Part shown: positions 40,561 through 56,578 of the stretch, piece after piece
Layout of the letters: every line of letters starts with the position of its first letter
Numbering within the stretch: position 1 is the stretch's first letter
Origin: an uncultured Lacinutrix sp.
GTDB lineage: Bacteria > Bacteroidota > Bacteroidia > Flavobacteriales > Flavobacteriaceae
Assembly (NCBI RefSeq): GCF_947500325.1
Contig: NZ_CANMRQ010000001.1
Location: 1 to 64,000 of the forward strand
Direction: 5' to 3'
Length of the DNA stretch: 64,000 nucleotides
The notes under the pieces: model-generated
Told to the model about the DNA's origin: nothing
Databases searched by the model: none
The model's input: the letters and a program-made list of their open reading frames with translations, nothing else
Translations under genes and position numbers: made by a program

Positions 40561-40563
40561 TTG

Positions 40564-40810: not shown

Positions 40811-41933
40811 CAAGCTTGTCACTAACGACATATTCAATCACTCCGTGGCTACGATTAAAAGTCTTTTACCACAGCTCTTCCTTTTAAGCTAAAGAGGCCT
40901 AATATTTTAAAAAGCGTTCTGAGAATACCTCCGCTTATAAACAAGCTTTCCTAGAATTATAGTTTACACTTTCTCTAGTTTTCCACGTGCTTCTTATTGC
41001 TTAGAGAATTACGTACTTGTTCGATGCCTTAATACATTACAACTGTTCGGCAACTTAGACTTGACTTGCATAGTGACTTTTGTCACGCTTTGCAATTACA
41101 AGGGTTGGCTCCCTCACCATTTATAAGCGTCCTCTTTTGAGGCGGCTTATTAGAATGTTCACCGCAAGACAAAGGTTTGCGACCTCCATCTCCCCATATA
41201 TTACAATGGGTTTAGGCAACTACTAACTGCTGTAATGTTCGAAGTCTTTTGCTTTTTACTCACCAACTGAGCAGTATCAAATTATGGTTTAGATACTAGG
41301 AATCGAACCTAGAAATAAAGTTTTGACCTTGGAAAAGGGCTTCGAAAATGGCTTCGTAGATTTTAGCCTACAAAATACCAACCTTTTCCATGCGTGTTTC
41401 CCAACACACCGTATGTTTAGCTACCGAATAGTTTCCTATCGGGTACCTATAATACTGCAATACGCTCCGTTAAATTGGATGATCTATACGTAACCTATTA
41501 CTACAACTTTTCCTGTTAATGTCTCCATTTCAAGCCTAATTAAATGTTAGCTATAAACCCTTATTTACCTCAGCGGTTGCCCCTTGTAAATAGAAATTTA
41601 TGTTAGTTGCTTGCTTACCTGTACTATACTCAAAAGAATACAGTCTCCATTTGCAGTGTCTGCAAATAGATTTATCCTTGTTACCAAGTTTATCTATGGA
41701 CGATAAGCCGCCCCATTATTTATAATAAATAATGATTTCTTTATATATAGAAGCTATAAATTTTCAGCTTCTTTTAATTTCAATGAACGTTTTTATTAAA
41801 CTCCACCAGCTTCAAAATCTGGTGGAGTACTACTTATAAAGTCTGATTCCAAAAGACTTTTAATTAATTACTCTGCAAATATTTTACACTATTACGCAAT
41901 GTTTTTGCGTAGTTAAAATGATTTATGAAATTT
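40811..41933 (-). ncRNA. 1.1-kb ORF-free, GC-enriched, hairpin-rich block; candidate large structured RNA (strand uncertain), containing a tRNA-like T-arm/acceptor with encoded CCA near 41285-41318
   Basis: no ORF of 60 aa or more in six frames inside a gene-dense island; local GC visibly above flanks; many imperfect hairpins. Confidence 0.3.
41866..41906 (-). promoter_or_regulatory. shared operator/promoter module (third copy) upstream of RNA ligase
   Basis: ACTACGCAAAAACATTGCGTAATAGTGTAAAATATTTGCAG on the minus strand. Confidence 0.5.
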
Positions 41934-43521: not shown

Positions 43522-43779
43522 AATATTGACCGCGAAAGCGGTTATCTTTTTAGTTAAATAATTATGTTGTGGAATAAACTGGATTAGCTCGCTAATTTTT
43601 ATTTTTTTAGCTGTGCTCGTGAATGCAAAAGCATTTTAAACCAGTATCTTCCGGGCTTAACTCAATGAATTTTATTTCATTAAATAAGATTCGTTGAATT
43701 CGTAAACTCATTTCTACCGGACGTATAGACCTACCCTTCGACTCCGCTCAGGACATGCTTTGCTATTATTCCTTTTTTG

Positions 43780-43852
43780 GGGTGATTTCGGGACTCGAAC
43801 CCTATTCTTCTCATTCACAGTGAGACATTTTACCTGTTAAACTAAAACCACC
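43780..43852 (-). tRNA. tRNA-His (GTG)
   Basis: anticodon arm TCTCA-CTGTGAA-TGAGA; T-loop TTCGAGT; C73. Confidence 0.65.
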
Positions 43853-43883
43853 ATTTTTAATTCCCATGAAAATGGGAATCTTA

Positions 43884-43958
43884 GTTCTGACAAAAGGATT
43901 TGAACCTTTATCCACAAACGTATCAGGTTTGCACTTTACCAATTAAGCTATGTCAGAA
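43884..43958 (-). tRNA. tRNA-Ile (GAT)
   Basis: acceptor TTCTGAC/GTCAGAA; anticodon arm CAAAC-CTGATAC-GTTTG; T-loop TTCAAAT. Confidence 0.7.
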
Positions 43959-43963
43959 TGTTG

Positions 43964-44034
43964 TTAACCCAATAGGACTCGAACCTATACCTCAAGAGTC
44001 AAAGTCTTGAATGCTGCCATTACACCACAGGTTA
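43964..44034 (-). tRNA. tRNA-Gln (TTG)
   Basis: U1-A72; anticodon arm CAAGA-CTTTGAC-TCTTG; T-loop TTCGAGT. Confidence 0.65.
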
Positions 44035-44040
44035 ATTTTG

Positions 44041-44113
44041 TAAGCTTAATAGGACTCGAACCCATATTCCCAGAGTCGTATTCTGGAGTGTTATCCAATT
44101 ACACCATAAGCTT
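44041..44113 (-). tRNA. tRNA-Arg (ACG)
   Basis: acceptor AAGCTTA/TAAGCTT; D GTGT/ACAC; anticodon arm CCAGA-ATACGAC-TCTGG. Confidence 0.7.
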
Positions 44114-44118
44114 ATTTG

Positions 44119-44192
44119 TATCCTACCTCGGACTCGAACCGAGAAATCACAGCGCTTAAAACTGATGCCTTTTCCAATTTGGCCAGTAGGAC
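44119..44192 (-). tRNA. class-I-shaped tRNA with Leu-type anticodon TAA (short variable arm; T27-T43 mismatch)
   Basis: acceptor GTCCTAC/GTAGGAT; anticodon loop TTTAAGC; variable GATTT; A73. Confidence 0.5.
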
Positions 44193-44197
44193 ATTAG

Positions 44198-44271
44198 TAC
44201 AGGAAGAGAGATTTGAACTCTCAAAATCTTGTTTCTAAAACAAGCGCGTATGCCAGTTCCGCCATTCCTGC
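44198..44271 (-). tRNA. class-I-shaped tRNA with Leu-type anticodon TAG (short variable arm)
   Basis: acceptor GCAGGAA/TTCCTGT; anticodon arm CTTGT-TTTAGAA-ACAAG; variable ATTTT; A73. Confidence 0.5.
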
Positions 44272-44276
44272 ATTAG

Positions 44277-44350
44277 TTGAGATGTCAGGAATCGAACCTG
44301 AACCTTTCGCCTTATGAGAGCGATGCTCTACCTAGTTAAGCTACATCTCA
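44277..44350 (-). tRNA. tRNA with CAT anticodon (Met elongator or Ile-lysidine; not initiator-like)
   Basis: acceptor TGAGATG/CATCTCA; anticodon arm TCGCT-CTCATAA-GGCGA. Confidence 0.65.
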
Positions 44351-44355
44351 ATTTG

Positions 44356-44427
44356 TTGAGGCAATAGGGATCGAACCTATGACTGTCACGATGTAAGCGT
44401 GATGCTCTTCCGCTGAGCTATACCTCA
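44356..44427 (-). tRNA. tRNA-Val (TAC)
   Basis: D GCTC/GAGC; anticodon arm TCACG-CTTACAT-CGTGA; T-loop TTCGATC. Confidence 0.7.
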
Positions 44428-44432
44428 ATTTG

Positions 44433-44504
44433 TACTCTATAAGGGAATCGAACCCTTGTCTTCCGATAGAAAGTCGGATGCACTAACCACTATGCTAATA
44501 GAGC
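44433..44504 (-). tRNA. tRNA-Glu (TTC) with U at position 37
   Basis: anticodon arm TCCGA-CTTTCTA-TCGGA. Confidence 0.6.
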
Positions 44505-44510
44505 ATTTTG

Positions 44511-44582
44511 CGGTTCATACGAGAGTCGAACTCGTATCTCCCGAGAGACAGTCGGGAAGGATAGCCATTACCCCAATGAACC
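44511..44582 (-). tRNA. tRNA-Asp (GTC) with U at position 37, G73
   Basis: acceptor GGTTCAT/ATGAACC; anticodon arm CCCGA-CTGTCTC-TCGGG. Confidence 0.6.
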
Positions 44583-44589
44583 TTTAAAA

Positions 44590-44743
44590 ATTGAAGCTGA
44601 AATCGAAGTCGAACCTGAACTTATATAGCTTCGTTTTTATCTTCATTTTGTACATCTACCTGGATTAGTTCGTATCACACATATTTTTTTAAATGAGTGA
44701 GCTAAATCTTTAGTGCTATCCATTACACCATAAATGCTAATTG
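44590..44743 (-). pseudogene. decayed tRNA remnant(s): intact-looking 5' half (GCATTTA-TG-GTGT-AATGGATA-GCAC) with degenerate anticodon/T region and an unrelated GAAGCT...AGCTTC hairpin
   Basis: 5' half resembles the Arg/Gln genes of the array; no complete cloverleaf can be drawn. Confidence 0.35.
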
Positions 44744-44826
44744 TGGAAGTAGTAGGACTCGAACCTACATGCTCCGAAGAGACCAGATTTACAGTCTGGC
44801 GAGCCAACCAATTGCTCAATACTTCC
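44744..44826 (-). tRNA. tRNA-Tyr (GTA), type II with 14-nt variable arm
   Basis: acceptor GGAAGTA/TACTTCC; anticodon arm CCAGA-CTGTAAA-TCTGG. Confidence 0.7.
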
Positions 44827-44920
44827 AATTTTGAGACAAGGATGAGATTGTTACACGTTCTCATCAAGTCACAAATTGAATGTCACATTTTTAAACAGGT
44901 TTAAAATGTTTTCATCATTG

Positions 44921-44993
44921 AGACAAGGATGAGATTCGAACTCATAAAAAACAGTTTTGCAGACTGTTACTTTAACCATTCAGCCACCTTGTC
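44921..44993 (-). tRNA. tRNA-Cys (GCA), second copy
   Basis: acceptor GACAAGG/CCTTGTC; anticodon arm ACAGT-CTGCAAA-ACTGT; preceded by a 19-bp direct repeat of its own 3' end. Confidence 0.6.
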
Positions 44994-44997
44994 TTTG

Positions 44998-45070
44998 CGA
45001 TAGTGATAGGATTCGAACCTATAACCAAGGACTTAACAGATCCACGCTCTGCCATTGAGCTACACTATCA
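44998..45070 (-). tRNA. tRNA-Asn (GTT), G73
   Basis: acceptor GATAGTG/CACTATC; anticodon loop CTGTTAA. Confidence 0.65.
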
Positions 45071-45075
45071 TTTTG

Positions 45076-45148
45076 AGGAGTTACGGAGACTTGCACTCCA
45101 TTCTGCACATTGCAAACGTGCTGTTTTGGCTTGGTAAACTATAACCCC
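45076..45148 (-). tRNA. tRNA-Ala (TGC) with G3:U70 identity pair and unusual T-loop TGCAAGT
   Basis: acceptor GGGGTTA/TAACTCC; anticodon arm GCACG-TTTGCAA-TGTGC. Confidence 0.6.
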
Positions 45149-45159
45149 ATAATTTTTTG

Positions 45160-45246
45160 CGGAGAGCAAAGGAATCGAACCTTCACCGCCATAAAGCGGA
45201 CTTGTTTAGCAGACAAGCGCAACAAACCAGTATTTGCCTACTCTCC
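45160..45246 (-). tRNA. tRNA-Ser (GCT), type II
   Basis: anticodon arm CTTGT-CTGCTAA-ACAAG; long variable arm; G73. Confidence 0.65.
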
Positions 45247-45259
45247 ATTTATTTATATC

Positions 45260-45333
45260 GTCTAAGAGACAGGATTCGAACCTGCAACCTCTCGCTTCCA
45301 AAGCGAGTAAACTATCCATCGTTCTCCTCTTAG
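45260..45333 (-). tRNA. tRNA-Pro (TGG), C1-G72, A73
   Basis: acceptor CTAAGAG/CTCTTAG; anticodon arm CTCGC-TTTGGAA-GCGAG. Confidence 0.7.
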
Positions 45334-45338
45334 TTTTG

Positions 45339-45425
45339 CGGAAGGAGTGGGAATCGAACCCACACGAGTCGTTATCTCCGAACAGTTTTCAAAACTGTGG
45401 CCACCACCTATTGGCTTGCCCTTCC
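45339..45425 (-). tRNA. tRNA-Ser (TGA), type II
   Basis: anticodon arm ACAGT-TTTGAAA-ACTGT; long variable arm; G73. Confidence 0.65.
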
Positions 45426-45434
45426 ATTTTTTTG

Positions 45435-45508
45435 TTGACGTAGTGAGAGTCGAACTCACATAACCTCGATTAAAAGTCGAGTGCTTTAGCCAGTTAAGCT
45501 ACACGTCA
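45435..45508 (-). tRNA. tRNA-Lys (TTT)
   Basis: acceptor TGACGTG/TACGTCA; D GCTT/AAGC; anticodon arm CTCGA-CTTTTAA-TCGAG. Confidence 0.7.
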
Positions 45509-45794
45509 CTATTTTATTTCAATGAACACCATAAAAAAAGCACCTCATTTTTATGGAAGGTGCTTTCTTTAAATCTATAAATACATCAACTCATGTATCT
45601 ATAACCTTCCTATTATATTTTATAAATCTCTCATCACAACTAGATGCGACCATATTATGCTTCGGCGAGCGAAACCAGAGATTTTGTTTAATTATATGTT
45701 GTAAATAATTTTCCATTATTGTTTTATTTGTTTTTGACGATGCAAAGATGAAACGCTTTTTTGAATTACACAAGAAAAATTTCATTTTAATTTA

Positions 45795-45992
45795 CTGATA
45801 ATCAATTAATTATGTTGTTTTTAGGCAATAGAATTCCTGTCCGTTTTTTAACGGATATTCAACATGTTATACAATAGTCTGTCTCCCAATTGTTTTGCTG
45901 TTTCAATGCTCTATTTTAATCTTTTTACTGTTCTATAATCATTTCAAAAAAAATTAAAAAAAAACGTCCAACTTTTAGGTTGGACGCTTAAT
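45795..45992 (-). repeat. repeat block 1 (upstream of the tRNA array): conserved core TTTTAGGCAATAGAATTCCTG(T/C)CCG plus GCGTCCAAC hairpin/terminator
   Basis: shares an about 48-bp core and a terminal hairpin with 53262-53447. Confidence 0.5.
45955..45990 (-). terminator. rho-independent terminator for the minus-strand gene 46229-47176
   Basis: minus strand reads GCGTCCAACC-TAAAA-GTTGGACG followed by T-run. Confidence 0.6.
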
Positions 45993-46176
45993 ATTCTATT
46001 TTTATTAGAGTTTAAATCATAATCTACTCTTTAAAAAAGATACAAAACGTCCTTCTTGGGGATTCAGTAAAATAACTGCTCCTCTATAATCGCATTCACT
46101 AAAGCGCGATATTGCTTGTTTATGTATTTCTTGTTTTATCATAATTATTTCCCACGAAAGTGGGAATCTGTTTTAT

Positions 46177-46222
46177 TTACACTACAAATATAATTGCAGT
46201 AAGACGCAATCTTTTTACGTAG
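46177..46222 (-). promoter_or_regulatory. shared operator/promoter module (fourth copy)
   Basis: ACTACGTAAAAAGATTGCGTCTTACTGCAATTATATTTGTAGTGTAA on the minus strand. Confidence 0.5.
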
Positions 46223-46228
46223 TTAAAA

Positions 46229-47176
46229 TTATTTTTTTGTTTTTAAATGAATCTCTCCTCTTTTTGGATTAAAAATCATTTGTTGAACAGTAATATCCAT
46301 TTTTACATTACCATCTGAAAGAATATCAAAATGATCTTGAATTGATTCTGGCGATTTAAACTTAATCATTTCGTTCACCCTTTTGTGCCTACCAGATGCT
46401 GTTAATTGCAAGGTGTCATTAGTTTGTTTATTTTCAGTTAACGATAAATATTCGTTAGTTACAATTAAGCTGTTACCCGCAGCTTTTCTTATAGAAAAAG
46501 TTGTTGGGGTTCGTTCTATAACTACATTTTCATCTTTATTTACGCCCACAACCATTAATAAACAATCTGAGGCAATAGTTGTTTCAGAAAGCATTACAAC
46601 CGCTTCATCAAATGTTTTTGCTTTTTCTAAAACATCCCTAATTAAAAACGTAATAGGAATAGCAAACTGAGGCGATTCATTACTTAATACAGCATTTAAA
46701 GTTATTGAAAATAATCTTGGTTTTACTCCTGATAACGCTCCAATAAAACCTGGCCAACTTACTAAAGAATATTGAGTTTCATTATCCTTCTTAAAGTCAA
46801 ATATTTTAGTAAACTTTCCCAGCATATTATTCTCTGACCACCAATCTAGATTTCTAGCATGAAGCTTTTCATTTTGATTAGTAACACAAAACGAAGTACA
46901 ACCAAAAACAAACTTTAATGCATCGTAATATAAGTTTGTAATTAATATTTCATTTTCTGAAAAATCACTATATCTTGAAACAGATTTAATTTCTTCTTGA
47001 TACTCTTTATTAATAAATAGTGTTTTATAGGTTTCTATATAGTCTTGGAAAATACCAGCACTACTCAAATCTTCTAAATAGTATTTGAAAAGACTATTCA
47101 TCTCTTTCCTATAGTCTTTAAGCCAATGCCACCTTTCTGATGGCTTAGCATTTAAATTTATTATAATTCGTTCCAT
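46229..47176 (-). CDS. Ntn-hydrolase, acid-ceramidase / choloylglycine-hydrolase-like (linear amide C-N hydrolase)
   Basis: candidate nucleophile in FGCTSFCVTNQ, 315 aa. Confidence 0.5.
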   Translation of the reverse strand: MERIIINLNAKPSERWHWLKDYRKEMNSLFKYYLEDLSSAGIFQDYIETYKTLFINKEYQEEIKSVSRYSDFSENEILITNLYYDALKFVFGCTSFCVTNQNEKLHARNLDWWSENNMLGKFTKIFDFKKDNETQYSLVSWPGFIGALSGVKPRLFSITLNAVLSNESPQFAIPITFLIRDVLEKAKTFDEAVVMLSETTIASDCLLMVVGVNKDENVVIERTPTTFSIRKAAGNSLIVTNEYLSLTENKQTNDTLQLTASGRHKRVNEMIKFKSPESIQDHFDILSDGNVKMDITVQQMIFNPKRGEIHLKTKK

Positions 47177-47211
47177 TTTAATTCCTTTTTCTAATAAGTA
47201 AAATCACAGGT

Positions 47212-47787
47212 TTAGTTTTGCTGTTGCAAACACCAATGTAAAATTTTTGCAATATTTTTTGCGTCATCTACACCTCGGTGATGCGTCCCTTCTAGAGGTA
47301 TTTTTAAAATATTAAGAGCGCCTTTCATCCCTACTTTTTTATTTAAATCTTTTACCCAACTAAAATGAGTTTTTACATTAATATGTTTTTGAGATAATGG
47401 GTATTCCACACCTCGCAACTTACATTGTTTTTTCATCATATTTAAATCGTAAGCGCCATAGCTTGCCCAAGTGTAATGATTAGCACTGTAATCTTCTCTT
47501 AATTTTACACAAGCTTCTTTAAAAGTAATACCTTCTTTATCTAAAAGATCTTGAGTTATTGTTGTTAGCTCTGTACAAAACGAACTTACCTTAGAGCGTT
47601 CTGGCTTAATTAATATCCCTTCACTTTTTGTAATACTTCCTGTAATTATGTCTAAAACACAAATACCTATTTCTATTATTTCATTTACTTGACCATTTGG
47701 AATTTCCCCATTCCAACACGTAGCCTCTAAATCTATTATAATTATATTTTTATTGTAATTCATTATCTTATTTTTAAAAGTAGACAA
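47212..47787 (-). CDS. DEDD-family 3'-5' exonuclease (DnaQ/KapD-like)
   Basis: Exo I motif IIIDLEATC, downstream acidic motifs, conserved H near C-terminus; 191 aa. Confidence 0.65.
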   Translation of the reverse strand: MSTFKNKIMNYNKNIIIIDLEATCWNGEIPNGQVNEIIEIGICVLDIITGSITKSEGILIKPERSKVSSFCTELTTITQDLLDKEGITFKEACVKLREDYSANHYTWASYGAYDLNMMKKQCKLRGVEYPLSQKHINVKTHFSWVKDLNKKVGMKGALNILKIPLEGTHHRGVDDAKNIAKILHWCLQQQN

Positions 47788-47813
47788 ACCTAAGCATGCC
47801 TACTTTTCTTTAT

Positions 47814-48173
47814 TTATTGAGATGCATATATTTTATCTCTCCTATCTATTTCGCCTAAGGGACTTCCTTTGAAGGTTAAAATATTTACAAACCCATTATC
47901 TTTTGTAATTAAAGAGTCTTTTTCTTTAACAGCTCCAATAGCTTTATTTCCATAATCGCCAGTTAATTTTTTGGTTGCAGGATCTAAATCTCCCCAAAGT
48001 ATATCTGGCTTACCATTATCTATTGGTTCAACGAAATAAGTAATCCCAGTAATTTTAGAACTTACTATAAATCGTCCTGTTCTATCTGTTCTTGTAAGGA
48101 ATCGCTTTAGTAATTCTTGTCGTTTCATAAAGGTTTGTTTTTTATTGTGAACTCCTACCTTCGCAGGAATCAC
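47814..48173 (-). CDS. hypothetical protein
   Basis: 119 aa. Confidence 0.4.
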   Translation of the reverse strand: MIPAKVGVHNKKQTFMKRQELLKRFLTRTDRTGRFIVSSKITGITYFVEPIDNGKPDILWGDLDPATKKLTGDYGNKAIGAVKEKDSLITKDNGFVNILTFKGSPLGEIDRRDKIYASQ

Positions 48174-48179
48174 AAATAG

Positions 48180-48707
48180 TTATTTCTTTTTTTTCTTCTT
48201 CTTTTTGGATGTTTTCTTCTTATTAGGTTTCATTTTAGTTTTCACTCTTGATATTTCTGAGTTGATATAGCTTATAAAACCATCATTATATCCAAATTGT
48301 TTTGCTTTTTTTAGCGCTTTAATTGCTTTTTTGTAGTCTTGTGTTATTTCAAAAAGCTGGCCTTGATTTTTCCAAATAACCCCTTTATCAATACCTTTTA
48401 CTGTTAAAGCAAAATCAATTAATTTTTGAGCTTCATCAAAATCGTCATTATCCAATAACACTTGAATATATCTTGGATAAACACGTTGATAATCCATTTT
48501 GTTTGCTAATGCTTCTGCATAATATTGCTTCGCCTTTTCATAATCTCCAAACTGTTCTGCTTGTAAACGCGCCATGAGATACAATGCGTAAGCATTATTA
48601 CTTTCGTAAGACAAGGCATAGTTTAGATTCTCTACAGTTTCTTCTAACTCATATGGATAAGCATCAATAGCTTTTAGCACGTAATTATTTAATAAATTAG
48701 TTTCCAT
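48180..48707 (-). CDS. TPR-like helical protein with poly-Lys C-terminus
   Basis: 175 aa; KKKKKKK tail. Confidence 0.45.
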   Translation of the reverse strand: METNLLNNYVLKAIDAYPYELEETVENLNYALSYESNNAYALYLMARLQAEQFGDYEKAKQYYAEALANKMDYQRVYPRYIQVLLDNDDFDEAQKLIDFALTVKGIDKGVIWKNQGQLFEITQDYKKAIKALKKAKQFGYNDGFISYINSEISRVKTKMKPNKKKTSKKKKKKKK

Positions 48708-48711
48708 TGTT

Positions 48712-49407
48712 TTAGTTATTTAATTCATTGCGTAAATCATTTTTTAATGCGCAACGTTGTTTTTTATATTTTTTTACAACTGTATTCTTTTTAAAATTTG
48801 AGCCTTTAAAAACTTGTATAGGATTACCTCTTTCTAATTTTAAATGGTTTCCCCATTGGTTTTTAATACTCATTTGTAAAGCTTCTAATTGTATTGCGCT
48901 TACTTTTTCTTGCAAGCGTATTTTTGCTATTTTTTTATTTTGATGTTGTGAGCGGCTATCCATAACTAATACTTGTGTTTTAGTTAGTTTATGAATAGCC
49001 CTAATAGCGGAGCTCACTTTATTTACATGCTGTCCTCCAGGTCCAGAACTACGAGTTGCTTGATATGTAATATCTTTGTCATGAATTTGAAATTCTTGAC
49101 TTTGTTCTATCTCATATAAACCCACAAACCAATTTTTACGTTTATGATTTGGCCTAAAAGCCGAAACGCCTATCCACTGTATTGTTCCTTTCCATTGACT
49201 TAAAAACACCTCTAGGTTTTCTCCTTTTAATTGAACAGTAACCGACTGCAATGTCAAATTCTCTATTCCTTTTTCCCTTTGTAATATTTTATAATCAATA
49301 GCATTGCGTTTTACAGCTTCTAAAAATTGCTTTAAAACTTGAGCCACAACCCAACAACATTCTGCTGGTCCTCGACCTGAGGTTATTTGTATTATTTTAG
49401 TATTCAT
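48712..49407 (-). CDS. prfH: peptide chain release factor homologue PrfH (GGQ-containing; RtcB2-associated)
   Basis: matches E. coli PrfH block-by-block: GPAECC, WKGTIQWIGVSAFRPNHKRKNWFVG, RSSGPGGQHVNK, ERGNP; 231 aa. Confidence 0.85.
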   Translation of the reverse strand: MNTKIIQITSGRGPAECCWVVAQVLKQFLEAVKRNAIDYKILQREKGIENLTLQSVTVQLKGENLEVFLSQWKGTIQWIGVSAFRPNHKRKNWFVGLYEIEQSQEFQIHDKDITYQATRSSGPGGQHVNKVSSAIRAIHKLTKTQVLVMDSRSQHQNKKIAKIRLQEKVSAIQLEALQMSIKNQWGNHLKLERGNPIQVFKGSNFKKNTVVKKYKKQRCALKNDLRNELNN

Positions 49408-49966
49408 TTTTATATACTTTTTCTAAAGGATTTTTAGACAGTAATACATTACCAACAGGATTTTCACCTTTCGCAATTAATTGTAACGCTGCTTTTACTG
49501 CCCAGCATTTATCGCTAGAATGAATGTTAGAGTAGAAGCTTAATAACGTTTTTGGCTCAACTAATGTCCAACCATTTACTTTTATAACTTCTACTGTCGC
49601 AGATTCAAAAAAATCTATAGTTACTCTTACTTGTTTTCCTGTTTCTAGCCAATCTATTTTCTCGTAACGTCTAAAATTTTCGTTACTTGGCATATGGTCA
49701 TATCGTGTCCACACTTTTTCGAAACCATTGGCTGCTAGTACTACCATCACTTCTGCAACATCTTTTGGATGTACAAAAATGTCTATATCCTTATGATCAT
49801 GCGCATGTTTGTATTCTGTATGGTCTTCTGGTGACATAAAATGCCATGCCCAACCTCCTGAAATAATAATCCATGCTTTTAATTTATTTAAAATGTCCAA
49901 ACCCTTTTCTATTCTATAGTTTGGCCATTGCTCTCCGTATCTTTTTATGTTATGATTTGCTCCCAT
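49397..49966 (-). CDS. hypothetical protein, possible minimal nucleotidyltransferase (GG...DIDI motif)
   Basis: ISGGWAW...DHKDIDIFV; 189 aa; overlaps prfH start. Confidence 0.35.
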   Translation of the reverse strand: MGANHNIKRYGEQWPNYRIEKGLDILNKLKAWIIISGGWAWHFMSPEDHTEYKHAHDHKDIDIFVHPKDVAEVMVVLAANGFEKVWTRYDHMPSNENFRRYEKIDWLETGKQVRVTIDFFESATVEVIKVNGWTLVEPKTLLSFYSNIHSSDKCWAVKAALQLIAKGENPVGNVLLSKNPLEKVYKNEY

Positions 49967-49992
49967 AATTCCTTTGTTTTTAAAGCAAAAAT

Positions 49993-51384
49993 TTACCTAG
50001 CCATTCTCACTATTTTTGGTGTAAACTTGCCAACAACCTCAACTAATTCTAATTGATTTTGCATCACTTTTTCAATGTTTTTATATGCCATTGGCGCCTC
50101 GTCAATACCGCCTCCAATTAAAGAGACGTCATGCTTTTGCAATTCTTTTTTTATTGCACTTTGCGTTAATGTCATTTTACATTGTCGTCTTGACAATAAA
50201 CGTCCTGCACCGTGAGATGCCGATTGTAAACTCTCTGTATTACCTAATCCTCTAACTATAAATCCTGGCGCCGTCATAGATCCAGGAATAATACCTAGCT
50301 CTCCTTTTTTTGCTGGTGTCGCTCCTTTTCTATGTACTATACATTCTTGACCATTTACGTCTTGTTTCCAAGCGAAATTGTGATGATTTTCTATTTTGGC
50401 AATTGGTCTTTCTCCTAATAATTTACCTATGCGTTTATGAATATCATCATGGCAAGCTTTTGCATAATCTCCAGCCAAATTCATAGCTAGCCAATATTCT
50501 TGTCCGTCGTGAGTATTTAAATCTAACCATGCTAAATGCTGTACATGTTTTGGTAACGGACATTGCTTTGTTGCCAAATATGTATAATGCTTAGCGATGT
50601 TAGCACCCAAACCTCTTGAACCACTATGTGATAAAACACCTAAGTATTCTCCTATTGGTAAATCCCATTCGTTATTTACATCTAGAATACTTACTTGACC
50701 AAATTCGACAAAATGATTGCCGCCACCCGAAGTTCCTAATTGCTTATAAGCTTTATCTTTTAAGCGTTTTACTAACGGAATCGTTTTAAACTCTTCACGT
50801 TCAAAAACTGGATCATCATGTTTTATTTTGTGCGTTTCGTACATCCCAAATTTGGTGTGCTCCGACAAAATATTTTCCAATTGATGCTTCTTTCCTTTTA
50901 AATAAGAGGCTTTAACGGGATATATAGTTAAACACATTCTGCACCCAATATCTACGCCTACACCATAAGGAATAACAGCATCTTTTGTTGCTAATACGCC
51001 TCCAATTGGCAATCCATATCCTACATGTGCATCTGGCATTAAAGCACCAGCAACTGCAATTGGTAGTTTTAAAGCATCGAATAATTGATACTTTGCTTTA
51101 TCGTCGATTTCATTGTCTCCATAGATTTGAAATGGTGCGCGATGTGTATTTAATACTTGCTTTTTTACCACTACAGGATCTAATAAACTTTCGGCTATTT
51201 TACCCCAAACACCATCACCTTTATAAGCCTCAGGATTTAATAATACTTTCTTTGCTTCTATTAATATTTTTTCTTTTTTTATTCTTTTCTGGTAACGATT
51301 AATTTGACCTAAAGTCACATTAATACTATTGTTTTTCGGAAAGCCTAACTTGATTAAGTCTTTCCCGCTTAATTTCTTTCCCAT
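49993..51384 (-). CDS. rtcB: RtcB-family RNA ligase, PrfH-associated paralog (RtcB2-type)
   Basis: RtcB motifs PDAHVGYG, GCRMC, GGGNHF, HSGSRGLG, HHN; 463 aa; same operon as prfH. Confidence 0.8.
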   Translation of the reverse strand: MGKKLSGKDLIKLGFPKNNSINVTLGQINRYQKRIKKEKILIEAKKVLLNPEAYKGDGVWGKIAESLLDPVVVKKQVLNTHRAPFQIYGDNEIDDKAKYQLFDALKLPIAVAGALMPDAHVGYGLPIGGVLATKDAVIPYGVGVDIGCRMCLTIYPVKASYLKGKKHQLENILSEHTKFGMYETHKIKHDDPVFEREEFKTIPLVKRLKDKAYKQLGTSGGGNHFVEFGQVSILDVNNEWDLPIGEYLGVLSHSGSRGLGANIAKHYTYLATKQCPLPKHVQHLAWLDLNTHDGQEYWLAMNLAGDYAKACHDDIHKRIGKLLGERPIAKIENHHNFAWKQDVNGQECIVHRKGATPAKKGELGIIPGSMTAPGFIVRGLGNTESLQSASHGAGRLLSRRQCKMTLTQSAIKKELQKHDVSLIGGGIDEAPMAYKNIEKVMQNQLELVEVVGKFTPKIVRMAR

Positions 51385-51432
51385 TGTTTTAGTTTTTAAT
51401 GAGAAGGTGAAAATTAAATCACCTTCTCTTTT

Positions 51433-52806
51433 TTAATTCATCATTGTTTTCAAAATGAAATACATAATCCAAAAGATTATTTTCAATACCAAAGTAGAAT
51501 CATAATTTTGCTTCTCAGTCATTTGTCTACGTTCAACTAGCCTAGCATATGCTTGCTGTTGACCATGAGCTTGGTATGGTCTTTCGTATTCCATCTCTTT
51601 TTTTCGCCTAACTTGTGAATTGTTAATCCAGTGATTTATTAATTCAACAGATTTACTGTCAGGATCTTGATTACACTTTGCTTTAGCTTGAACAATTGTA
51701 TAGCTTGGTAATTCTATTTCTAAAGTAACCAAGCGTTTCATTGGTTTACCTTCAATTTCTTGTCTTAAAGAAAAAATTGAACACCTTCCTTCATCACAAT
51801 CGTCATCGTATTCAGAAACACAGTGTTGCATTTCATTTCCTTCATCATAAAGCTCCCCTGAACTTAAAAGCTCTTCAGTTTTATAAATAACTTTTTTATT
51901 ATCTAAAGTTTCTTCAAAGTATAAAGGCTTAATTCCTGATGAGCTCCAAGAAAATTCCTCCCCTTTTTCTTTTAAGTAAACACTACGATGCCATTCTTGC
52001 GTTTGATTCAACAATGAGCTGAATGTTCTATTTTTCATTGAAAGCGACTGATTATCACGATATTTATATGCTAAATAATCAACAACTTCATCTAATTCAT
52101 TAACATTTAAATTTTCTTCTTTTGAAAAAAACTGAACAACTGATGCCCAAAAACATTCTTGCTCTTCTCTTATAATTGATAACCTTGAAAATGCAATCAT
52201 TTTAGAGGTTTTTGTTGAAGCTCCATAACCTAATGCTTGTGCGTAACGTAAAGCTTCATTAACCGACAAAAATGAAGGAGCATTTCTAAACTCATGCGCC
52301 ATTTTATCTGTTAGCTTTATTGGCATATTAGATAAGCTTTTTACACTTTTTCCTTTTCCCAACTGAACGTACCAAAACATGTGTTTTTTTTCACTTATAT
52401 AAAATGAGTTTTCTAAAAACGTTGGTGTTACATATAATGCAAAACAGTGTTTTATTACTGCGCTTAGTTGTTTTTCTTCTTGCAAACATTCGTTTTGCCA
52501 ATCTTCAATATTTCTTACTATTTTATTACCAAAACCACTTATATTATGAAGAACACTAACACTGTTATAATTTCTTAATAATGCATAACACTTTTGGTTG
52601 TACAAGTGAATTAATAACCTCTTAAAAGTTTCTCTTTTCCATGTGTATTTTCTCTTGCTGGTTTTAGAAAAAAATTCACGAAGCATTGATTCTATAGAGC
52701 CTTTATAACGAGTAGGCTTATTATTTTCGTTATATATTTTTTCAACTAATTTTATATAACTCCCTTTATGTAAGTGTTTGTTCTCTACATTCTTATTTGT
52801 TTTCAT
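51433..52806 (-). CDS. hypothetical protein, possibly PcfJ-like (tentative)
   Basis: 457 aa; C-terminal MQHCVSEY...C.EGRCSIF Cys/His cluster. Confidence 0.35.
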   Translation of the reverse strand: MKTNKNVENKHLHKGSYIKLVEKIYNENNKPTRYKGSIESMLREFFSKTSKRKYTWKRETFKRLLIHLYNQKCYALLRNYNSVSVLHNISGFGNKIVRNIEDWQNECLQEEKQLSAVIKHCFALYVTPTFLENSFYISEKKHMFWYVQLGKGKSVKSLSNMPIKLTDKMAHEFRNAPSFLSVNEALRYAQALGYGASTKTSKMIAFSRLSIIREEQECFWASVVQFFSKEENLNVNELDEVVDYLAYKYRDNQSLSMKNRTFSSLLNQTQEWHRSVYLKEKGEEFSWSSSGIKPLYFEETLDNKKVIYKTEELLSSGELYDEGNEMQHCVSEYDDDCDEGRCSIFSLRQEIEGKPMKRLVTLEIELPSYTIVQAKAKCNQDPDSKSVELINHWINNSQVRRKKEMEYERPYQAHGQQQAYARLVERRQMTEKQNYDSTLVLKIIFWIMYFILKTMMN

Positions 52807-53261
52807 TTTAAAGTTCTTTACTAGATTATTTTCTATGTAAAGCCACTCAAATTTTTAATACACATTGTTAAATTGTATGCATTTATAATCATATCTTAAT
52901 TTGGCTTTTACTATTTAATGAGAAGCTGCATTTTATATTAGCTTTCGTTTCAACATCCCTTAAAAGGGTTCACTTCGAACAATTGATATCCGGAATTTTT
53001 AAGCCTAAACTACTTTTGAAAAAAAGGCATACAAAAAAGTCCGAAACTTTTGGCTTCGGACTCTTTGTATGATAAAAATAGATCTCTATTTATCTGGAAA
53101 GAAGTCTCGAAGCGAGTATACTAAAGAACCTAGTTCTTCAATTATACTTTTGTTTACATTGGTATTAAACATTTTACTTCGTTTTAATATTTATTTTGTT
53201 GCAGTATTGCGGTGCAAATATAGAATGTAATTTTTGAAAAATCCAAATAAAAAATAAAATT

Positions 53262-53447
53262 AATTTGCTGAAAATCAATTAGTTAAATTGATTTTAGGCA
53301 ATAGAATTCCTGCCCGAATTTCTTCAGATATGTAATTCCTTGACAGTGTGCTATGTAATTAATCAATACACAATTTTTAGGCATTTACAGGTTTTTATTT
53401 TTTTTATAAAAAAAAAGCGTCCAAATTAAATTATTTGGACGCTTTCA
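53262..53447 (-). repeat. repeat block 2, paralogous to 45795-45992
   Basis: TTTTAGGCAATAGAATTCCTGCCCG core and GCGTCCAAATAATTTAATTTGGACGC hairpin. Confidence 0.5.
53409..53447 (-). terminator. rho-independent terminator for the minus-strand gene 53615-54676
   Basis: minus strand: GCGTCCAAATAATTTAATTTGGACGC followed by T9. Confidence 0.6.
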
Positions 53448-53614
53448 CTATTTTTTATTTATATATACCTACTAAATATATCTACAATAGCGCAATTTTG
53501 CGTCCTTATTATGTGATTTAAATAGATTCATATAGGTGTGTTTATTTTTTTATGCTGTACAAATATGTGAATTTTATTTGAAATATTCACAATAAGTATA
53601 AATGTATTTATTTT

Positions 53615-54676
53615 CTATTCCAAGATCTTATTAATGTATTTGAAACCCAAAAGATCTAATGCTTTTAACTTATCTAAAGTTATCTTATCAAGAAAAGAAA
53701 GTATTACCTCTCCATTTTTTAATCGAATGTGAGTAATAAACTCAGAAACATCTATTACATCTCCAAACATTTCAGATTTAAATTTTATAAAAGATTCCTC
53801 ATTCTCGAAAACATAGATATCTACATCCGAAAGAAAAGTAATTAGGCCATATTTTAAACTAAATTTTTTTTCTTTAAAAAGACCAACTTTGCTTACATAG
53901 ATTTCACTTGGGTTTGCTTTAAATTTTTGTAACCATATTTCATTTTGAATTACATCTTTATTTAAGACAAAAGCCTCTTCTATAAAACTTAAGTCTATAT
54001 TAACAGACTCTTTAGATATTTCATAAACTGTATTCTCTAAAGGAATTTCTTTTTCCCAGTCTAAACAGTAAGTATTAAGAGGAATTCTTGATGTGTTTGA
54101 AGGTATTAACGCTTCGGCTTCTCCAGTATAACTAGCTTCTAATTGAAATTCGGAATTAAACTTTATATTATGTAAAAAGGAAAACAATGTTTTTAGCGTT
54201 TTTGGAACAGATATTAAATTTTGAGGATTTCCTACTAAAGGCTTTAGTTTCATTGCTTTATTGTCTAACCAATTAACACAAAACTCTGTTCCCAAATCGA
54301 TACTTGTGTTAAAGTTTGTATTTAAAACAGCTTCAGAAGCTGTGCCTCTTGTTGTTTTAAGTTGAAATGCTCCTAAATCAATTCCATCAGAAAGATTCAT
54401 ATAAAAACATGTTTCACCTAAAGGTTTTATAGCAAAACCAGCACTTAGCTCAATATCTTCATATAACTTAGTACCAATACTAACATCTAAAGATTTTCCA
54501 TCGAATTTAAAATCCATAGACATTCCTTTTGTTAATTCAATAGAATTATTGAGACTTAGACCATCTTTAGTAGCAATTATTTTACCTGAAAGTATTTTTT
54601 TTTCTGTTTTATCTTGTTGAGCATAATTACTAAGAAGGCTACATGAAATAAAGAAAAGAGTAAATAATGATTTCAT
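53615..54676 (-). CDS. secreted hypothetical protein
   Basis: signal peptide, 353 aa. Confidence 0.45.
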   Translation of the reverse strand: MKSLFTLFFISCSLLSNYAQQDKTEKKILSGKIIATKDGLSLNNSIELTKGMSMDFKFDGKSLDVSIGTKLYEDIELSAGFAIKPLGETCFYMNLSDGIDLGAFQLKTTRGTASEAVLNTNFNTSIDLGTEFCVNWLDNKAMKLKPLVGNPQNLISVPKTLKTLFSFLHNIKFNSEFQLEASYTGEAEALIPSNTSRIPLNTYCLDWEKEIPLENTVYEISKESVNIDLSFIEEAFVLNKDVIQNEIWLQKFKANPSEIYVSKVGLFKEKKFSLKYGLITFLSDVDIYVFENEESFIKFKSEMFGDVIDVSEFITHIRLKNGEVILSFLDKITLDKLKALDLLGFKYINKILE

Positions 54677-54856: not shown

Positions 54857-56578
54857 ATGGCAGTAAATAAAAACGCATTAATTCGTTATAAAACTATAGA
54901 TAAATGTCTTCAAAATAATTTTAGACAATGGACACTTAATGACTTAATAGAAGCTGTATCTGATGCGCTTTACGAATACGAAGGCAAAGATATAGATGTA
55001 AGTAAACGTACAGTGCAATTAGACCTTCAAATGATGCGTAGCGATAAACTAGGTTATAATGCTCCTATTGTGGTTTATAATAGAAAATATTATAAGTACG
55101 ATGATGACAATTATAGTATTACAAATAGCCCTATTTCTAATCAAGATTTAACAAAATTATCTGAAGCTGTTTCTTTTTTAAAACAATTCCAAGGATTTTC
55201 CCATTTTAAAGAACTAGGAAGCATGGTTCAAAAACTAGAAGACCATGTATACACCCAAAAAACACAAGAAAAATCGTTAATTGATTTTGAAAAAAATGAA
55301 AACTTGAAAGGTCTAGAGTTTCTAGATGAATTATATCAATTTATTCTTAAAAAACAAGCTATTGAAATTACATACCAGTCTTTTAAAGCAAGACAAGAAA
55401 ATACATTTACATATTATCCTTATTTATTAAAAGAATATAGAAATCGATGGTTTGTTATTGGTAAAAGAAAGAAAAATGAAGGCATAATGAACTTAGCTTT
55501 AGACCGCATTATTTCAATTAATAAAAGCTCTAAAACTTATACAATTGACAGCTCTTTTGATTCTAAAACATACTATAAAGATGTTATAGGCGTATCTGTA
55601 AGTCCAAATATGGCTGCAGAAGATGTTGTGTTTTATGTTAACCATAAACACGCTCCTTATGTTATTACAAAACCTTTTCATAAATCTCAAAAAATTATAG
55701 ATCGTGATAATTATGGTGTTACTTTCTCTATGCAAGTGCAACTTAATTTTGAATTAGAAAAGGAAATTTTAGGGCTTGGGGAATCTATTAAAATTATAGC
55801 TCCAGAGCGTTTAAAACGGAATATTAAAGAACGTTTATATGATGCTATTGACACTTATGAAACAGAGATTAGTGATAAAAATTTACGAACTATAGCAAAA
55901 CGATTAGAATATAAAGGGTTCGGTATTTTAAATCACATATATTCAAAGCGTGATATTAGAAAACTTAAAGCACGATTTGATAGTTATATAAAACAGAACA
56001 ATGAACAAGCTTATGGTATGCGAGAAGTCTTATTAAAAATGCCTGAACTTAAGGGTATTCTTTTTAATAAAAACTTTAGAAAACTTATTAAGTCTATTGA
56101 TAAAAATGTGTTTTTAACTAAAGCTATTTATTTTGACAAATCTCCAAATGAAAATTGGTATGTTAATTGGCACCAAGATGTCCCTATTAATGTTAGTAAA
56201 AAAATAGAAACTAATAATTTCTCGTCTTGGACAAATAAAAAAGGTGTTATTAGTGTTTGTCCTCCGCAAAAAATTTCTCAGAATACTTTTTCTATGCGCA
56301 TTCATTTAGATGATACCTCCATAAAAAATGGAGCCTTAAAGGTTATTCCTGGTTCGCATAACAAGCGTTTAAAAGACGATGAGATACAATTAATAAGCTC
56401 AAATTCAATACCTTTTATATGTGAAGTTGCTTCAGGTGGTGTTCAATTATTAAAACCGTTACTTCTTCACGCTTCTTCTAAAACTACTACTCAAAAAAGG
56501 CGCCGTGTACTACATTTAGAATTTTCTTCTATTGCGTTACCAAATGGCTTAGAATATGCTGAAAAAGAAGTGTTATAA
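54857..56578 (+). CDS. HTH-WYL domain regulator fused to a PhyH-type Fe(II)/2-oxoglutarate dioxygenase domain
   Basis: N-terminal HTH (SKRTVQLDLQMM), WYL-like core YYPYLLKEYRNRWFVIG, C-terminal WHQDVP (HxD) and VIPGSH motifs; 573 aa. Confidence 0.55.
   Translation: MAVNKNALIRYKTIDKCLQNNFRQWTLNDLIEAVSDALYEYEGKDIDVSKRTVQLDLQMMRSDKLGYNAPIVVYNRKYYKYDDDNYSITNSPISNQDLTKLSEAVSFLKQFQGFSHFKELGSMVQKLEDHVYTQKTQEKSLIDFEKNENLKGLEFLDELYQFILKKQAIEITYQSFKARQENTFTYYPYLLKEYRNRWFVIGKRKKNEGIMNLALDRIISINKSSKTYTIDSSFDSKTYYKDVIGVSVSPNMAAEDVVFYVNHKHAPYVITKPFHKSQKIIDRDNYGVTFSMQVQLNFELEKEILGLGESIKIIAPERLKRNIKERLYDAIDTYETEISDKNLRTIAKRLEYKGFGILNHIYSKRDIRKLKARFDSYIKQNNEQAYGMREVLLKMPELKGILFNKNFRKLIKSIDKNVFLTKAIYFDKSPNENWYVNWHQDVPINVSKKIETNNFSSWTNKKGVISVCPPQKISQNTFSMRIHLDDTSIKNGALKVIPGSHNKRLKDDEIQLISSNSIPFICEVASGGVQLLKPLLLHASSKTTTQKRRRVLHLEFSSIALPNGLEYAEKEVL

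Follow-up and report, generated by a model that had tools for sequence, protein, structure and literature searches.

Is the PrfH locus of this flavobacterium a two-gene ribosome-repair module, or an operon in which further genes take part in the repair? To our knowledge, no pathway other than PrfH and RtcB repairs ribosomes whose decoding centre has been cleaved, and we know of no experiments on this pathway that included partners other than these two proteins. The tailed Flavobacteriia type accounts for about a third of PrfH proteins. The DNA analyzed was a 64,000-nt stretch (the window) from an uncultured Lacinutrix sp., a marine flavobacterium. We consider it fairly likely that the locus encodes a Flavobacteriia version of the PrfH/RtcB rescue and RNA-repair system, whose core consists of RtcB, a nucleotidyltransferase (NT), a PrfH of the PrfH-CT subfamily and a TPR/poly-Lys protein, and which is gated by an attenuator and belongs, as one of several modules, to an island of ~30 kb.

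The gene run and its conserved core

A first-pass annotation had described a five-gene operon with rtcB2 immediately upstream of prfH, and its five open reading frames were indeed found on the minus strand at the coordinates it gave. RtcB (49993..51384, 463 aa), an RtcB-family 3'-phosphate/5'-OH RNA ligase, is not adjacent to prfH (48712..49407, 231 aa), because the 189-aa gene reported as inserted does sit between them; it encodes a minimal Pol-beta-fold nucleotidyltransferase (NT, 49397..49966). RtcB thus lies 586 nt upstream of PrfH on the same strand with one intervening gene. The NT stop and the prfH start overlap by 11 nt, and the gene for the TPR protein (48180..48707, 175 aa) starts 4 nt past the prfH stop. 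The next gene had been read as 119 aa and separated by a 5–7-nt spacer. That length rests on a GTG start at 48173; homologues of this orphan protein (p104, 47814..48128, 104 aa) have 104–106 aa, and a database entry of 104 aa with the identical sequence begins at the ATG at 48128, therefore the spacer after the TPR gene is 51 nt, not 6. Besides, the run extends beyond five genes. A PcfJ-like gene (51433..52806, 457 aa) is the first after the leader, and a DEDDh 3'-5' exonuclease (RNase T/KapD-like, 47212..47787, start codon uncertain) and a C45-family autoproteolytic Ntn amidohydrolase/acyltransferase (46229..47176, 315 aa) precede the first terminator-like hairpin 3' of the run, which carries a T-run (45962..45989); all are on the minus strand. 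The upstream counterpart of this hairpin (53413–53446) closes the gene preceding the PrfH operon, and no terminator-like site was found on the coding strand between the eight genes. The transcription unit probably comprises these eight genes, from the PcfJ-like gene to the C45 hydrolase, with terminators called by pattern matching.

The identity of prfH was borne out. The protein scored 221.7 bits against TIGR03072, above the curated equivalog cut-off of 166.65 (TIGR03072/IPR017509), and E. coli PrfH (7sa4_8) aligned at E 2.7e-42. A better match was PrfH of Capnocytophaga gingivalis (CgPrfH, 9mor_A, E 1.1e-73), whose alignment (residues 1–226) runs through the tail, including FK..YKK.R. The protein contains GPGGQHVNK with the GGQ motif, aligns to residues ~112–314 only of RF2, and ends in a basic C-terminal tail that is conserved in relatives. 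Its length falls within 225–250 aa and its tail is homologous to that of CgPrfH, as in the PrfH-CT subfamily defined in PMC12829566; within this subfamily, peptide release on damaged and on intact non-stop ribosomes has been shown for CgPrfH only. RtcB matched PF01139 (E 2.5e-81), has an N-terminal extension of ~90 aa, and its translation contains the metal-binding/His-GMP motifs MPDAH, DIGC, GGGNHF, SHSGSRG, NHHNF and SHGAGR. Assignment to TIGR03073 “release_rtcB”, the E. coli RtcB2 type, was rejected (146.2 bits, cut-off 271.8), so the protein may differ in function from RtcB2 of E. coli. The best full-length match was the phage family phrog_1075 (327 bits), and identity to the second RtcB of the window was 26%. 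By these comparisons, RtcB belongs to a lineage other than RtcB2, though it stands beside PrfH as RtcB2 does.

We found that NT and the TPR gene are co-conserved with prfH and rtcB, as the first-pass annotation had asked of all the extra genes, while the fifth gene is not. A metagenome scan yielded 41 loci with a close NT homologue (at least 59% identity) and enough flanking sequence; PrfH and an RtcB ligase were present in all 41 and the TPR gene in 39. The order RtcB-NT-PrfH-TPR, which recurs in Chryseobacterium and Flavobacterium, is a conserved four-gene unit. The 175-aa protein is, as had been proposed, a TPR protein (TPR_12, TPR_14, TPR_19 and TPR_16 matches) with a poly-Lys tail. Such a basic end, with 10 or more K/R in the 30 C-terminal residues, was counted in 40 of 46 homologues. 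Its presence goes with the PrfH C-terminal tail: both were found in 36 cases, the tail only in 7, the TPR gene only in 3 and neither in 29. In the loci examined, a tailed PrfH is usually accompanied by the TPR/poly-Lys protein and in many genomes also by a dedicated nucleotidyltransferase.

Genes flanking the core

The fifth gene, p104, is not specific to PrfH. It was present in 8 of 80 PrfH loci, at varying positions, and also occurred without PrfH in two loci and in 25 viral contigs; contigs of jumbo-phage size carry it, and elsewhere it directly follows tRNA arrays. The PcfJ-like protein matched PF14284 (E 4.9e-15) and phrog_3169. In other genomes its slot is occupied by unrelated proteins of 229 aa or ~200 aa, and no similarity was found between it and the 229-aa protein. 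PcfJ-like genes lie in or beside RtcB/PrfH operons in four loci, one of them from Sedimentisphaerales. The exonuclease matched PF00929 (E 5.8e-16) and NF005838 KapD (E 8.8e-21), and in six loci it directly follows NT. The C45 hydrolase scored 120 bits against NF040521 (cut-off 85); homologues are located between NT and PrfH in two loci and after NT in another.

These distributions bear on a narrower view of the locus, in which only RtcB-NT-PrfH-TPR is a functional unit. The four flanking genes, p104 and those for the PcfJ-like protein, the exonuclease and the C45 hydrolase, would then be independent cassettes that lie alongside the core because the island packs RNA-repair modules tightly. The occurrence of p104 away from PrfH fits such an arrangement, as do the strongly differing gene contents of PrfH neighbourhoods among related genomes and a 101-nt direct repeat that flanks the 7.5-kb cassette on both sides. 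However, each of these flanking genes other than p104 recurs in PrfH/RtcB operons at varied positions in distant lineages, which is the pattern predicted by functional linkage, and the uninterrupted coding strand of the eight genes also argues for one unit. We treat the narrower view as a real but lesser possibility. In the broader reading, the PcfJ-like gene stands before the core here, and p104, the exonuclease and the C45 amidohydrolase come after it, probably on one eight-gene transcript.

Leader, operator and the RNA-repair island

The promoter and leader of the operon were read from the sequence at 53031..53331 (minus strand). A 101-nt repeated region (53331–53231) is followed by a Bacteroidetes-type promoter (TTTG / TATATTTG, pattern match), a 28-aa leader ORF (53172–53086), a proposed anti-terminator segment (53113–53102) and an intrinsic terminator (about 53068–53031, pattern match and covariation). 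The leader was detected by nhmmer at 85 places, as a rule once in each PrfH locus. Of these copies 75 were distinct, and most of the distinct ones retain the ORF and the terminator, and in nearly all copies the stop codon of the ORF is 18–25 nt from the stem. In the terminator, 92.5% of cells were paired, with 4 compensatory pairs. For the anti-terminator the figures were 83.7% and 3, and its score was reached by none of 500 shuffles, among sequences that are related; at its two covarying pairs, 8–9 of 28 cells were unpaired, and four of these belong to a class of sequences in which the pairing register is shifted. The partial leader transcript was predicted to fold into the anti-terminator (−19.9 kcal/mol, z −5.4), and the full-length leader to favour the terminator thermodynamically. 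With a conserved short ORF followed by a covarying intrinsic terminator upstream of the operon, the region looks like an attenuator, and operon expression is probably gated by leader-peptide transcription attenuation. As to the direction of the switch, we infer that ribosomes translating the 28-aa leader normally would mask the anti-terminator segment and let the terminator form, and that failed or early stalled translation would allow the anti-terminator to form, with read-through into the operon.

The island around the operon also encodes a second RtcB, Rnl2, a CCA-adding enzyme and an R2K ATP-grasp protein, along with two RlaP genes (30534–32335), 22 tRNAs and a GOLLD-like RNA. An array of 18 tRNA genes (43778..45508, minus strand) lies directly 3' of the operon; similarly, tRNA arrays or single tRNA-Tyr/Pro genes are beside PrfH loci in many genomes. 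The large non-coding RNA (40913..41390, minus strand) matched RF02032 over the full model (1–416) with 131.9 bits (E 3.6e-36), below the gathering score of 150, and the same RNA was found in three other loci (124–135 bits). It is best called a GOLLD-like, divergent variant. The genera with GOLLD-like RNA include ones that have cultured isolates (Winogradskyella, Olleya). A divergent WYL-WCX-PhyH regulator-like protein (54857..56578, plus strand, 573 aa; PF13280, PF25583, PF05721) is a candidate regulator of the island; homologues adjoin PrfH loci in 27 of 80 genomes, and a variant palindrome ACGTAAATAATTTGCGT is located upstream of it (~54797–54815). A ~65-nt operator/promoter element, TACGCAA-N5-TTGCG plus ATATTTGCAG (pattern match), occurs at 46170..46234 (minus strand) and in four other copies (41767–41923, 37522–37578, 36518–36570 and 34483–34534), with nhmmer E-values from 6.9e-42 to 2.6e-05; the five pattern matches compare with 0.29 expected by chance. 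In front of the PrfH operon itself no copy of this element was detected, and a shorter-spaced palindrome alone is present there (~53491–53503). The repeated palindromic operator and the WYL regulator probably tie the island units together. Nothing suggests that the extra partners are sensors, as had been supposed; the conserved, probable leader-peptide attenuator upstream and the WYL regulator with its repeated operator are the likelier sensing devices.

A more far-reaching possibility, which we put forward tentatively, is that an undescribed leader attenuator reading translation capacity switches on the PrfH operon of Flavobacteriales and that, in marine Flavobacteriaceae, the operon belongs to a WYL regulon marked by TACGCAA-N5-TTGCG. 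Such a regulon would co-express ribosome rescue, RNA ligases, end-healing enzymes, spare tRNAs and the GOLLD-like nanocage RNA. The nanocage structure of GOLLD has been solved, and we know of no function for this RNA; a regulon of this kind would place it in the response to ribosome and tRNA damage.

It is unlikely, in our view, that the island is instead phage-derived cargo, a tRNA-array unit with GOLLD whose main role would be to help a mobile element, by counter-defence or by backing up its translation, and not to protect the host from ribotoxins of competitors. The phage family as best RtcB match and the p104 genes in contigs of jumbo-phage size are consistent with this origin; both GOLLD and arrays of tRNA genes are characteristic of phages and of horizontally acquired arrays (PMC12286853, PMC6582537), and the toolkit resembles that of jumbo phages (PMC7824862). 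However, no phage structural or integrase genes are among the annotated island genes, the same flanking genes (ABC ATPase, WYL regulator) surround the locus across several genera, and chromosomes of Flavobacterium and Chryseobacterium carry the compact module by itself.

Proposed roles and comparison with known systems

NT has the minimal NTase fold of Pol-beta enzymes, together with their G[GS] motif, DxD pair and third carboxylate. More specific assignments were rejected: to RlaP (no PF10127 match at E up to 0.1; two neighbouring genes match at E 7e-66 and 2e-23), and to the Lnu/ANT(2'') antibiotic nucleotidyltransferases (Lnu(C), 18.7 bits, cut-off 300; PF10706, 17.6 bits, cut-off 21). Distant NT homologues are found in RtcB-NT-RlaP clusters without PrfH. 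In the repair system proposed here, NT and the frequently adjoining DEDDh exonuclease would remodel damaged RNA 3' ends before ligation, with ends trimmed and one or a few nucleotides added back; this role is modelled on that of RlaP, although NT has no specific relationship to that family. It is counted against such a role that a clean cut of the colicin E3 type can be repaired without any nucleotidyltransferase, and that the solved structures nearest NT are antibiotic nucleotidyltransferases, not RNA enzymes. That NT is a small-molecule resistance enzyme, kin to lincosamide/aminoglycoside nucleotidyltransferases and inactivating a ribosome-stalling antibiotic, so that the operon would join drug inactivation with rescue of drug-stalled ribosomes, seems improbable. 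The TPR/poly-Lys protein may bind ribosomes or rRNA and act as a scaffold in concert with the tailed PrfH, and RtcB would reseal the 2',3'-cyclic-phosphate/5'-OH break as its close homologues do (PMC9304027, PMC9223846, PMC12829566). If the partners are needed in vivo, the two-step model of rescue and then ligation is incomplete, the missing step would be end-remodelling, and repairable damage may exceed clean colicin E3 cuts. The conserved leader, which could report translation failure, and a shared operator that would link ribosome rescue with the spare tRNAs are further leads.

Like E. coli RtcB2-PrfH (Tian et al. 2022, PMC9304027; Maviza et al. 2022, PMC9223846), the locus encodes a GGQ-containing PrfH without the N-terminal domain and an RtcB partner, and the presumed logic is rescue first and then ligation. 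In contrast to the two E. coli genes there are four to eight here, with NT between rtcB and prfH, a 463-aa RtcB variant below the TIGR03073 cut-off and a C-terminal tail on PrfH. The C. gingivalis PrfH (Tian et al. 2026, PMC12829566; PDB 9mor) is likewise a 231-aa Flavobacteriia protein with a basic tail; operon partners are not a topic of that paper, in whose text neither TPR nor nucleotidyltransferase occurs, and the link between TPR gene and PrfH tail seen here is not described in it. RlaP (PF10127, PMC12776372), shown to add one or two nucleotides to cleaved RNA 3' ends, is similar to NT as a Pol-beta NTase encoded beside RNA ligases, but it has roughly 250–350 aa against 189, and NT is without a PF10127 match and has Lnu/ANT(2'') and MenT as nearest folds. 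Published long tRNA arrays go with rtcB in cyanobacteria, and in mycobacteria and phages the link is with GOLLD (PMC8421152; PMC6582537; PMC12286853); the contiguous 18-tRNA array beside RtcB and the GOLLD-like RNA near tRNAs resemble these; the three papers do not mention PrfH, nor were they seen to report a Flavobacteriaceae island combining all these elements.

The first-pass statement that described systems are two-gene modules is incorrect; the two-gene treatment is confined to the experimental papers. Section 2.4 of Burroughs and Aravind 2019 (PMC6514570) makes no mention of a PcfJ-like gene, p104, exonuclease or C45 hydrolase, nor of a leader attenuator, WYL operator, tRNA arrays or GOLLD, and the neighbourhoods it presents include a zinc-ribbon protein that is not present here. 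That section does describe RFH-RtcB as having accreted charged-helix proteins, a TPR gene and a Pol-beta NTase that had not been characterised before, with charged tails proposed as ribosome binders. In the parts of that work considered here, comparative genomics had already noted RtcB-PrfH with extra partners, and its Fig. 4G–I shares with this locus a TPR gene and a Pol-beta NTase other than RlaP on RFH-RtcB.

Gene content and conservation of the PrfH operon

An unbroken run of minus-strand genes was present in the ORF listing of the window, encoding a PcfJ-like protein (51433-52806, 457 aa), RtcB (49993-51384, 463 aa), a minimal Pol-beta nucleotidyltransferase (NT; 49397-49966, 189 aa), PrfH (48712-49407, 231 aa), a TPR protein with a poly-Lys tail (48180-48707, 175 aa), a small ORF (47814-48173, 119 aa as called), a DEDD exonuclease (47212-47787, 191 aa) and a C45 hydrolase (46229-47176, 315 aa). 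The end of NT and the beginning of prfH share 11 nt, and a 4-nt spacer separates the prfH stop from the TPR start. PrfH scored 221.7 bits against TIGR03072 (curated cut-off 166.65) and aligned with E. coli PrfH (7sa4_8) at E 2.7e-42, which bears out the homology proposed in the first-pass annotation; a better alignment was obtained with PrfH of Capnocytophaga gingivalis (9mor_A, E 1.1e-73), and it extended through the basic C-terminal tail. RtcB had every catalytic motif and a strong PF01139 match; its score against the PrfH-partner model TIGR03073 was only 146 bits, under the 271.8-bit cut-off, and its top full-length match was the phage RtcB family phrog_1075. Comparison of NT with its homologues showed that D60 and D62 were invariant, D118 nearly so, and the GG motif kept. 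Absence of a PF10127 match ruled out its assignment as RlaP. The exonuclease is of the DEDDh type (RNase T/KapD-like) and the C45 protein belongs to the Ntn amidohydrolase/acyltransferase type. The operon genes did not correspond to a known defence system, as PADLOC matched only generic DEDDh and WYL models.

The co-occurrence of these genes was analyzed in a PrfH scan using one genome per species, in which ORFs were clustered around the best 80 loci, mostly from Bacteroidota; all counts rest on the best 80 loci per scan. TPR was located directly 3' of PrfH in 46 of 81 sets (the best 80 loci and the window), and 40 of these 46 TPR proteins kept the poly-Lys/Arg tail. Presence of TPR largely followed that of the PrfH C-terminal tail (both, 36; tail only, 7; TPR only, 3; neither, 29), in counts that ignore phylogeny. 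The NT family is small, with 112 representatives at 50% identity among 1.84 billion proteins and 607 homologues in a larger database. An independent scan of metagenomes, seeded with NT, yielded 41 loci in which the NT homologue was close (at least 59% identity) and the flank long enough. All 41 contained PrfH and the same RtcB type, and 39 contained TPR. In contrast, PrfH was never alongside distant NT homologues (49-58% identity) among the scan loci; some of these were within RtcB-NT-RlaP clusters and others were solitary. Gene order was RtcB-NT-PrfH-TPR in the window, Bizionia, Chryseobacterium and Flavobacterium sp. J27, and RtcB-PrfH-TPR-NT-exonuclease in Aquimarina, Kordia and Dokdonia. 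The first-pass annotation had described a five-gene expansion of the RtcB2-PrfH module, a claim open to refutation by extra genes that are not co-conserved. This expansion is real and conserved, and the observation was largely right: NT and TPR withstood the test, and NT is linked more generally to RtcB-type repair.

The fifth gene did not, since it was detected in only 8 of the best 80 PrfH loci, at varying positions. It had also been mis-called as 119 aa: all homologues measure 104-106 aa, as does a database entry of the same sequence ("uncultured Lacinutrix sp."), which places the start at the ATG at 48128, so that a 51-nt spacer follows TPR. Neither a family nor a structural neighbour of this 104-aa protein (p104) was found by family-model and structure searches. 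Cases of p104 in the absence of PrfH adjoin genes for RlaP, the exonuclease and an RNaseH-like protein; in six loci p104 lies just 3' of tRNA arrays, and 25 IMG/VR contigs encode it, many of them 100-435 kb long. Homologues of the exonuclease, C45 and PcfJ-like genes are all found within RtcB/PrfH operons elsewhere, at differing positions. For example, two Bizionia-like loci, L002 and L088, have the C45 gene between NT and PrfH, and its changing position inside PrfH operons hints at a functional link to the rescue system. The shifting gene lies at about 9051-10000 in L002 and about 2747-3690 in L088, and a further case is L141. Similarly, a genome of the Sedimentisphaerales (L057) has the PcfJ-like gene between RtcB and PrfH. 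PcfJ-like genes were also observed in or beside RtcB/PrfH or RtcB-NT-RlaP clusters of the distant phyla Planctomycetota and Desulfobacterota (L057, L060, L150 and L003). The possibility that the PcfJ-like protein is a long form of c4, a 229-aa protein that occupies the same slot elsewhere, was ruled out as the two proteins lack similarity.

Transcription unit and conserved leader

Terminator-like hairpins on the coding strand were found only after the preceding gene (53446-53413) and after the C45 gene (45989-45962). Their location at both ends alone suggests that the genes from PcfJ-like to C45 may be transcribed as one eight-gene unit. The ~500 nt preceding the first gene recur, conserved in nucleotide sequence, before RtcB/PrfH operons of many genera. 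This region includes, within 53031-53331 (minus strand), a Bacteroidetes-type promoter, a 28-aa leader ORF (53172-53086) and an intrinsic terminator (about 53068-53031). A profile of the ORF and terminator gave 85 matches (75 distinct), typically one per PrfH locus, that span Flavobacteriales PrfH loci including those of Flavobacterium and Chryseobacterium. An ORF of 24-29 codons, typically ending in L-R-(D/G)-(F/Y/L), was kept in most copies, and the distance from its stop codon to the stem was 18-25 nt in nearly all. In the terminator, pairing was 92.5% and four pairs were compensatory. Its 5' arm can pair instead with the L-R-(D/G) codons, leaving the wobble base of Arg as a bulge. For this second helix, a proposed anti-terminator, pairing was 83.7% with three compensatory pairs, and none of 500 shuffles reached its score; until the 3' arm has been transcribed, it is the fold of lowest energy for the transcript (-19.9 kcal/mol, z -5.4). 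Judged from these sequence features, the leader looks like a leader-peptide attenuator, in which failing leader translation would give more read-through, the direction of the switch being the one we infer. Codons read by the tRNAs that anticodon nucleases attack (those for Asn, Tyr, His, Asp, Lys, Gln and Glu) were not enriched in the leader (23% versus a background of 18.5%, and 41% versus 37.5%), nor did the leader match a known RNA family, as an Rfam search of 45400-54900 gave one tRNA and weak chance matches only.

Besides, the 7.5-kb cassette from PcfJ to C45 lies between two copies of a 101-nt direct repeat (53331-53231 and 45858-45758; 76% identity). A similar terminator hairpin precedes each copy, and a small ORF with a terminator-like hairpin follows it: the leader ORF (53172-53086) in the first case, and an ORF at 45785-45591 with a hairpin at about 45563-45530 in the second. 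A separate 10-bp hairpin in the PcfJ-RtcB spacer (51401-51428) carries a T-run on the opposite strand alone, and the 39 nt around it have a 77%-identical copy at 52906-52944.

RNA-repair island and its candidate operator

The PrfH operon is located inside an all-minus-strand island of approximately 30 kb (about 26.8 to 56.6 kb). A second RNA-repair set of the window (26791-43521) consists of a DUF434/DUF5616 protein (26791-27399), two RlaP (30534-32335), an HD-domain CCA-adding enzyme (32325-33779), a second RtcB that is 26% identical to the first (35106-36506), an R2K ATP-grasp protein (37578-38360), a 610-aa protein without family (38433-40265), an Rnl2 ligase (41934-42929) and an RNaseH-like PF04308 protein (43036-43521). 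The tRNA genes form two arrays, of four at 28143-28468 and of 18 at 43778-45508. In the four-tRNA cluster, ARAGORN called a "tRNA-Cys" (28310-28381, minus strand) with the anticodon ACA, an uncommon one among bacteria. The 22 tRNAs and 30% G+C prompted the idea that the window is a jumbo phage. This was ruled out: PrfH relatives (75-84% identity) in Bizionia, Winogradskyella, Lacinutrix and Olleya reside on large chromosomal contigs with shared flanking genes, and the sole match of a phage collection to the window was 100 nt. Arrays of tRNAs, or a lone tRNA-Tyr/Pro of the same orientation, were beside PrfH in marine Flavobacteriaceae, Crocinitomicaceae, Fluviicola and one Planctomycetota genome (Sedimentisphaerales, L057), and were absent from the scanned PrfH loci of Flavobacterium, Chryseobacterium and Mucilaginibacter.

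An ORF-free gap between the 610-aa protein and Rnl2 ligase genes (40266-41933) contains a GOLLD-like RNA (40913-41390, minus strand), which covered the full RF02032 model at 131.9 bits (E 3.6e-36), under the gathering score of 150. The same RNA was directly 3' of PrfH-TPR in Winogradskyella and Olleya and was also found in Bizionia. A 113-nt tRNA-like sequence in this gap (40564-40676, minus strand; 48.3 bits on the Rfam tRNA model) has a 51-nt insertion at the anticodon-loop position and no ARAGORN call; it may represent a pseudo-tRNA or a tRNA with an intron.

A ~65-nt element, composed of the palindrome TACGCAA-N5-TTGCG and a promoter-like ATATTTGCAG box, occurred five times in the island (0.29 expected by chance), all on the minus strand. 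The copies (46170-46234, 41767-41923, 37522-37578, 36518-36570 and 34483-34534) are each 5' of a unit: the stretch preceding the tRNA array, GOLLD, a 120-aa gene, the second RtcB and the CCA-enzyme operon. A variant palindrome (about 54797-54815) is upstream of a divergent regulator-like WYL-PhyH gene (54857-56578, plus strand), homologues of which flank PrfH in 27 of the best 80 loci. The repetition of this candidate operator before separate units, and its variant beside WYL-PhyH, suggest that these units may form one regulon. A full 155-nt version of the element, 5' of the GOLLD-like RNA in the window (41767-41923, minus strand) and at about 11240-11390 in L004-L018, forms two hairpins with compensatory changes (CTCCACCAG/CTGGTGGAG, CTCTGCCAG/CTGGCAGAG and CTCTGCTAG/CTAGCAGAG). 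In 13 genomes it was shortly 3' of TPR (in most, directly after the TPR stop) and 5' of tRNA-Tyr/Pro or other downstream genes.

Comparison with known systems

Several observations, all of them computational, are absent from the papers compared here: close NT homologues are strictly linked to PrfH and distant ones to RtcB/RlaP; TPR correlates with the PrfH tail; NT is paired with the exonuclease; an attenuator-like leader is conserved; a candidate operator is shared with the WYL regulator; and PrfH operons are embedded in islands with tRNA arrays and a GOLLD-like RNA. PrfH-CT was defined and its dual rescue activity shown by Tian et al. (2026, PMC12829566), who mentioned no operon partners. 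Long tRNA arrays have been linked to rtcB in cyanobacteria (PMC8421152), in a paper with 0 occurrences of PrfH, and GOLLD is found in tRNA arrays of mycobacteria and phages (PMC6582537; PMC12286853), with no mention of PrfH found in these reports. RlaP was recently demonstrated to extend cleaved RNA ends by 1-2 nucleotides (PMC12776372). The expansion is already known from the literature as a gene neighbourhood, and the earlier view that described RtcB2-PrfH systems are two-gene modules is incorrect. According to Burroughs and Aravind (2019, PMC6514570), a TPR gene, a new non-RlaP Pol-beta NTase and charged-helix proteins are accreted on RFH-RtcB, where TPR was proposed to serve as a scaffold and the NTase to restore nucleotides.
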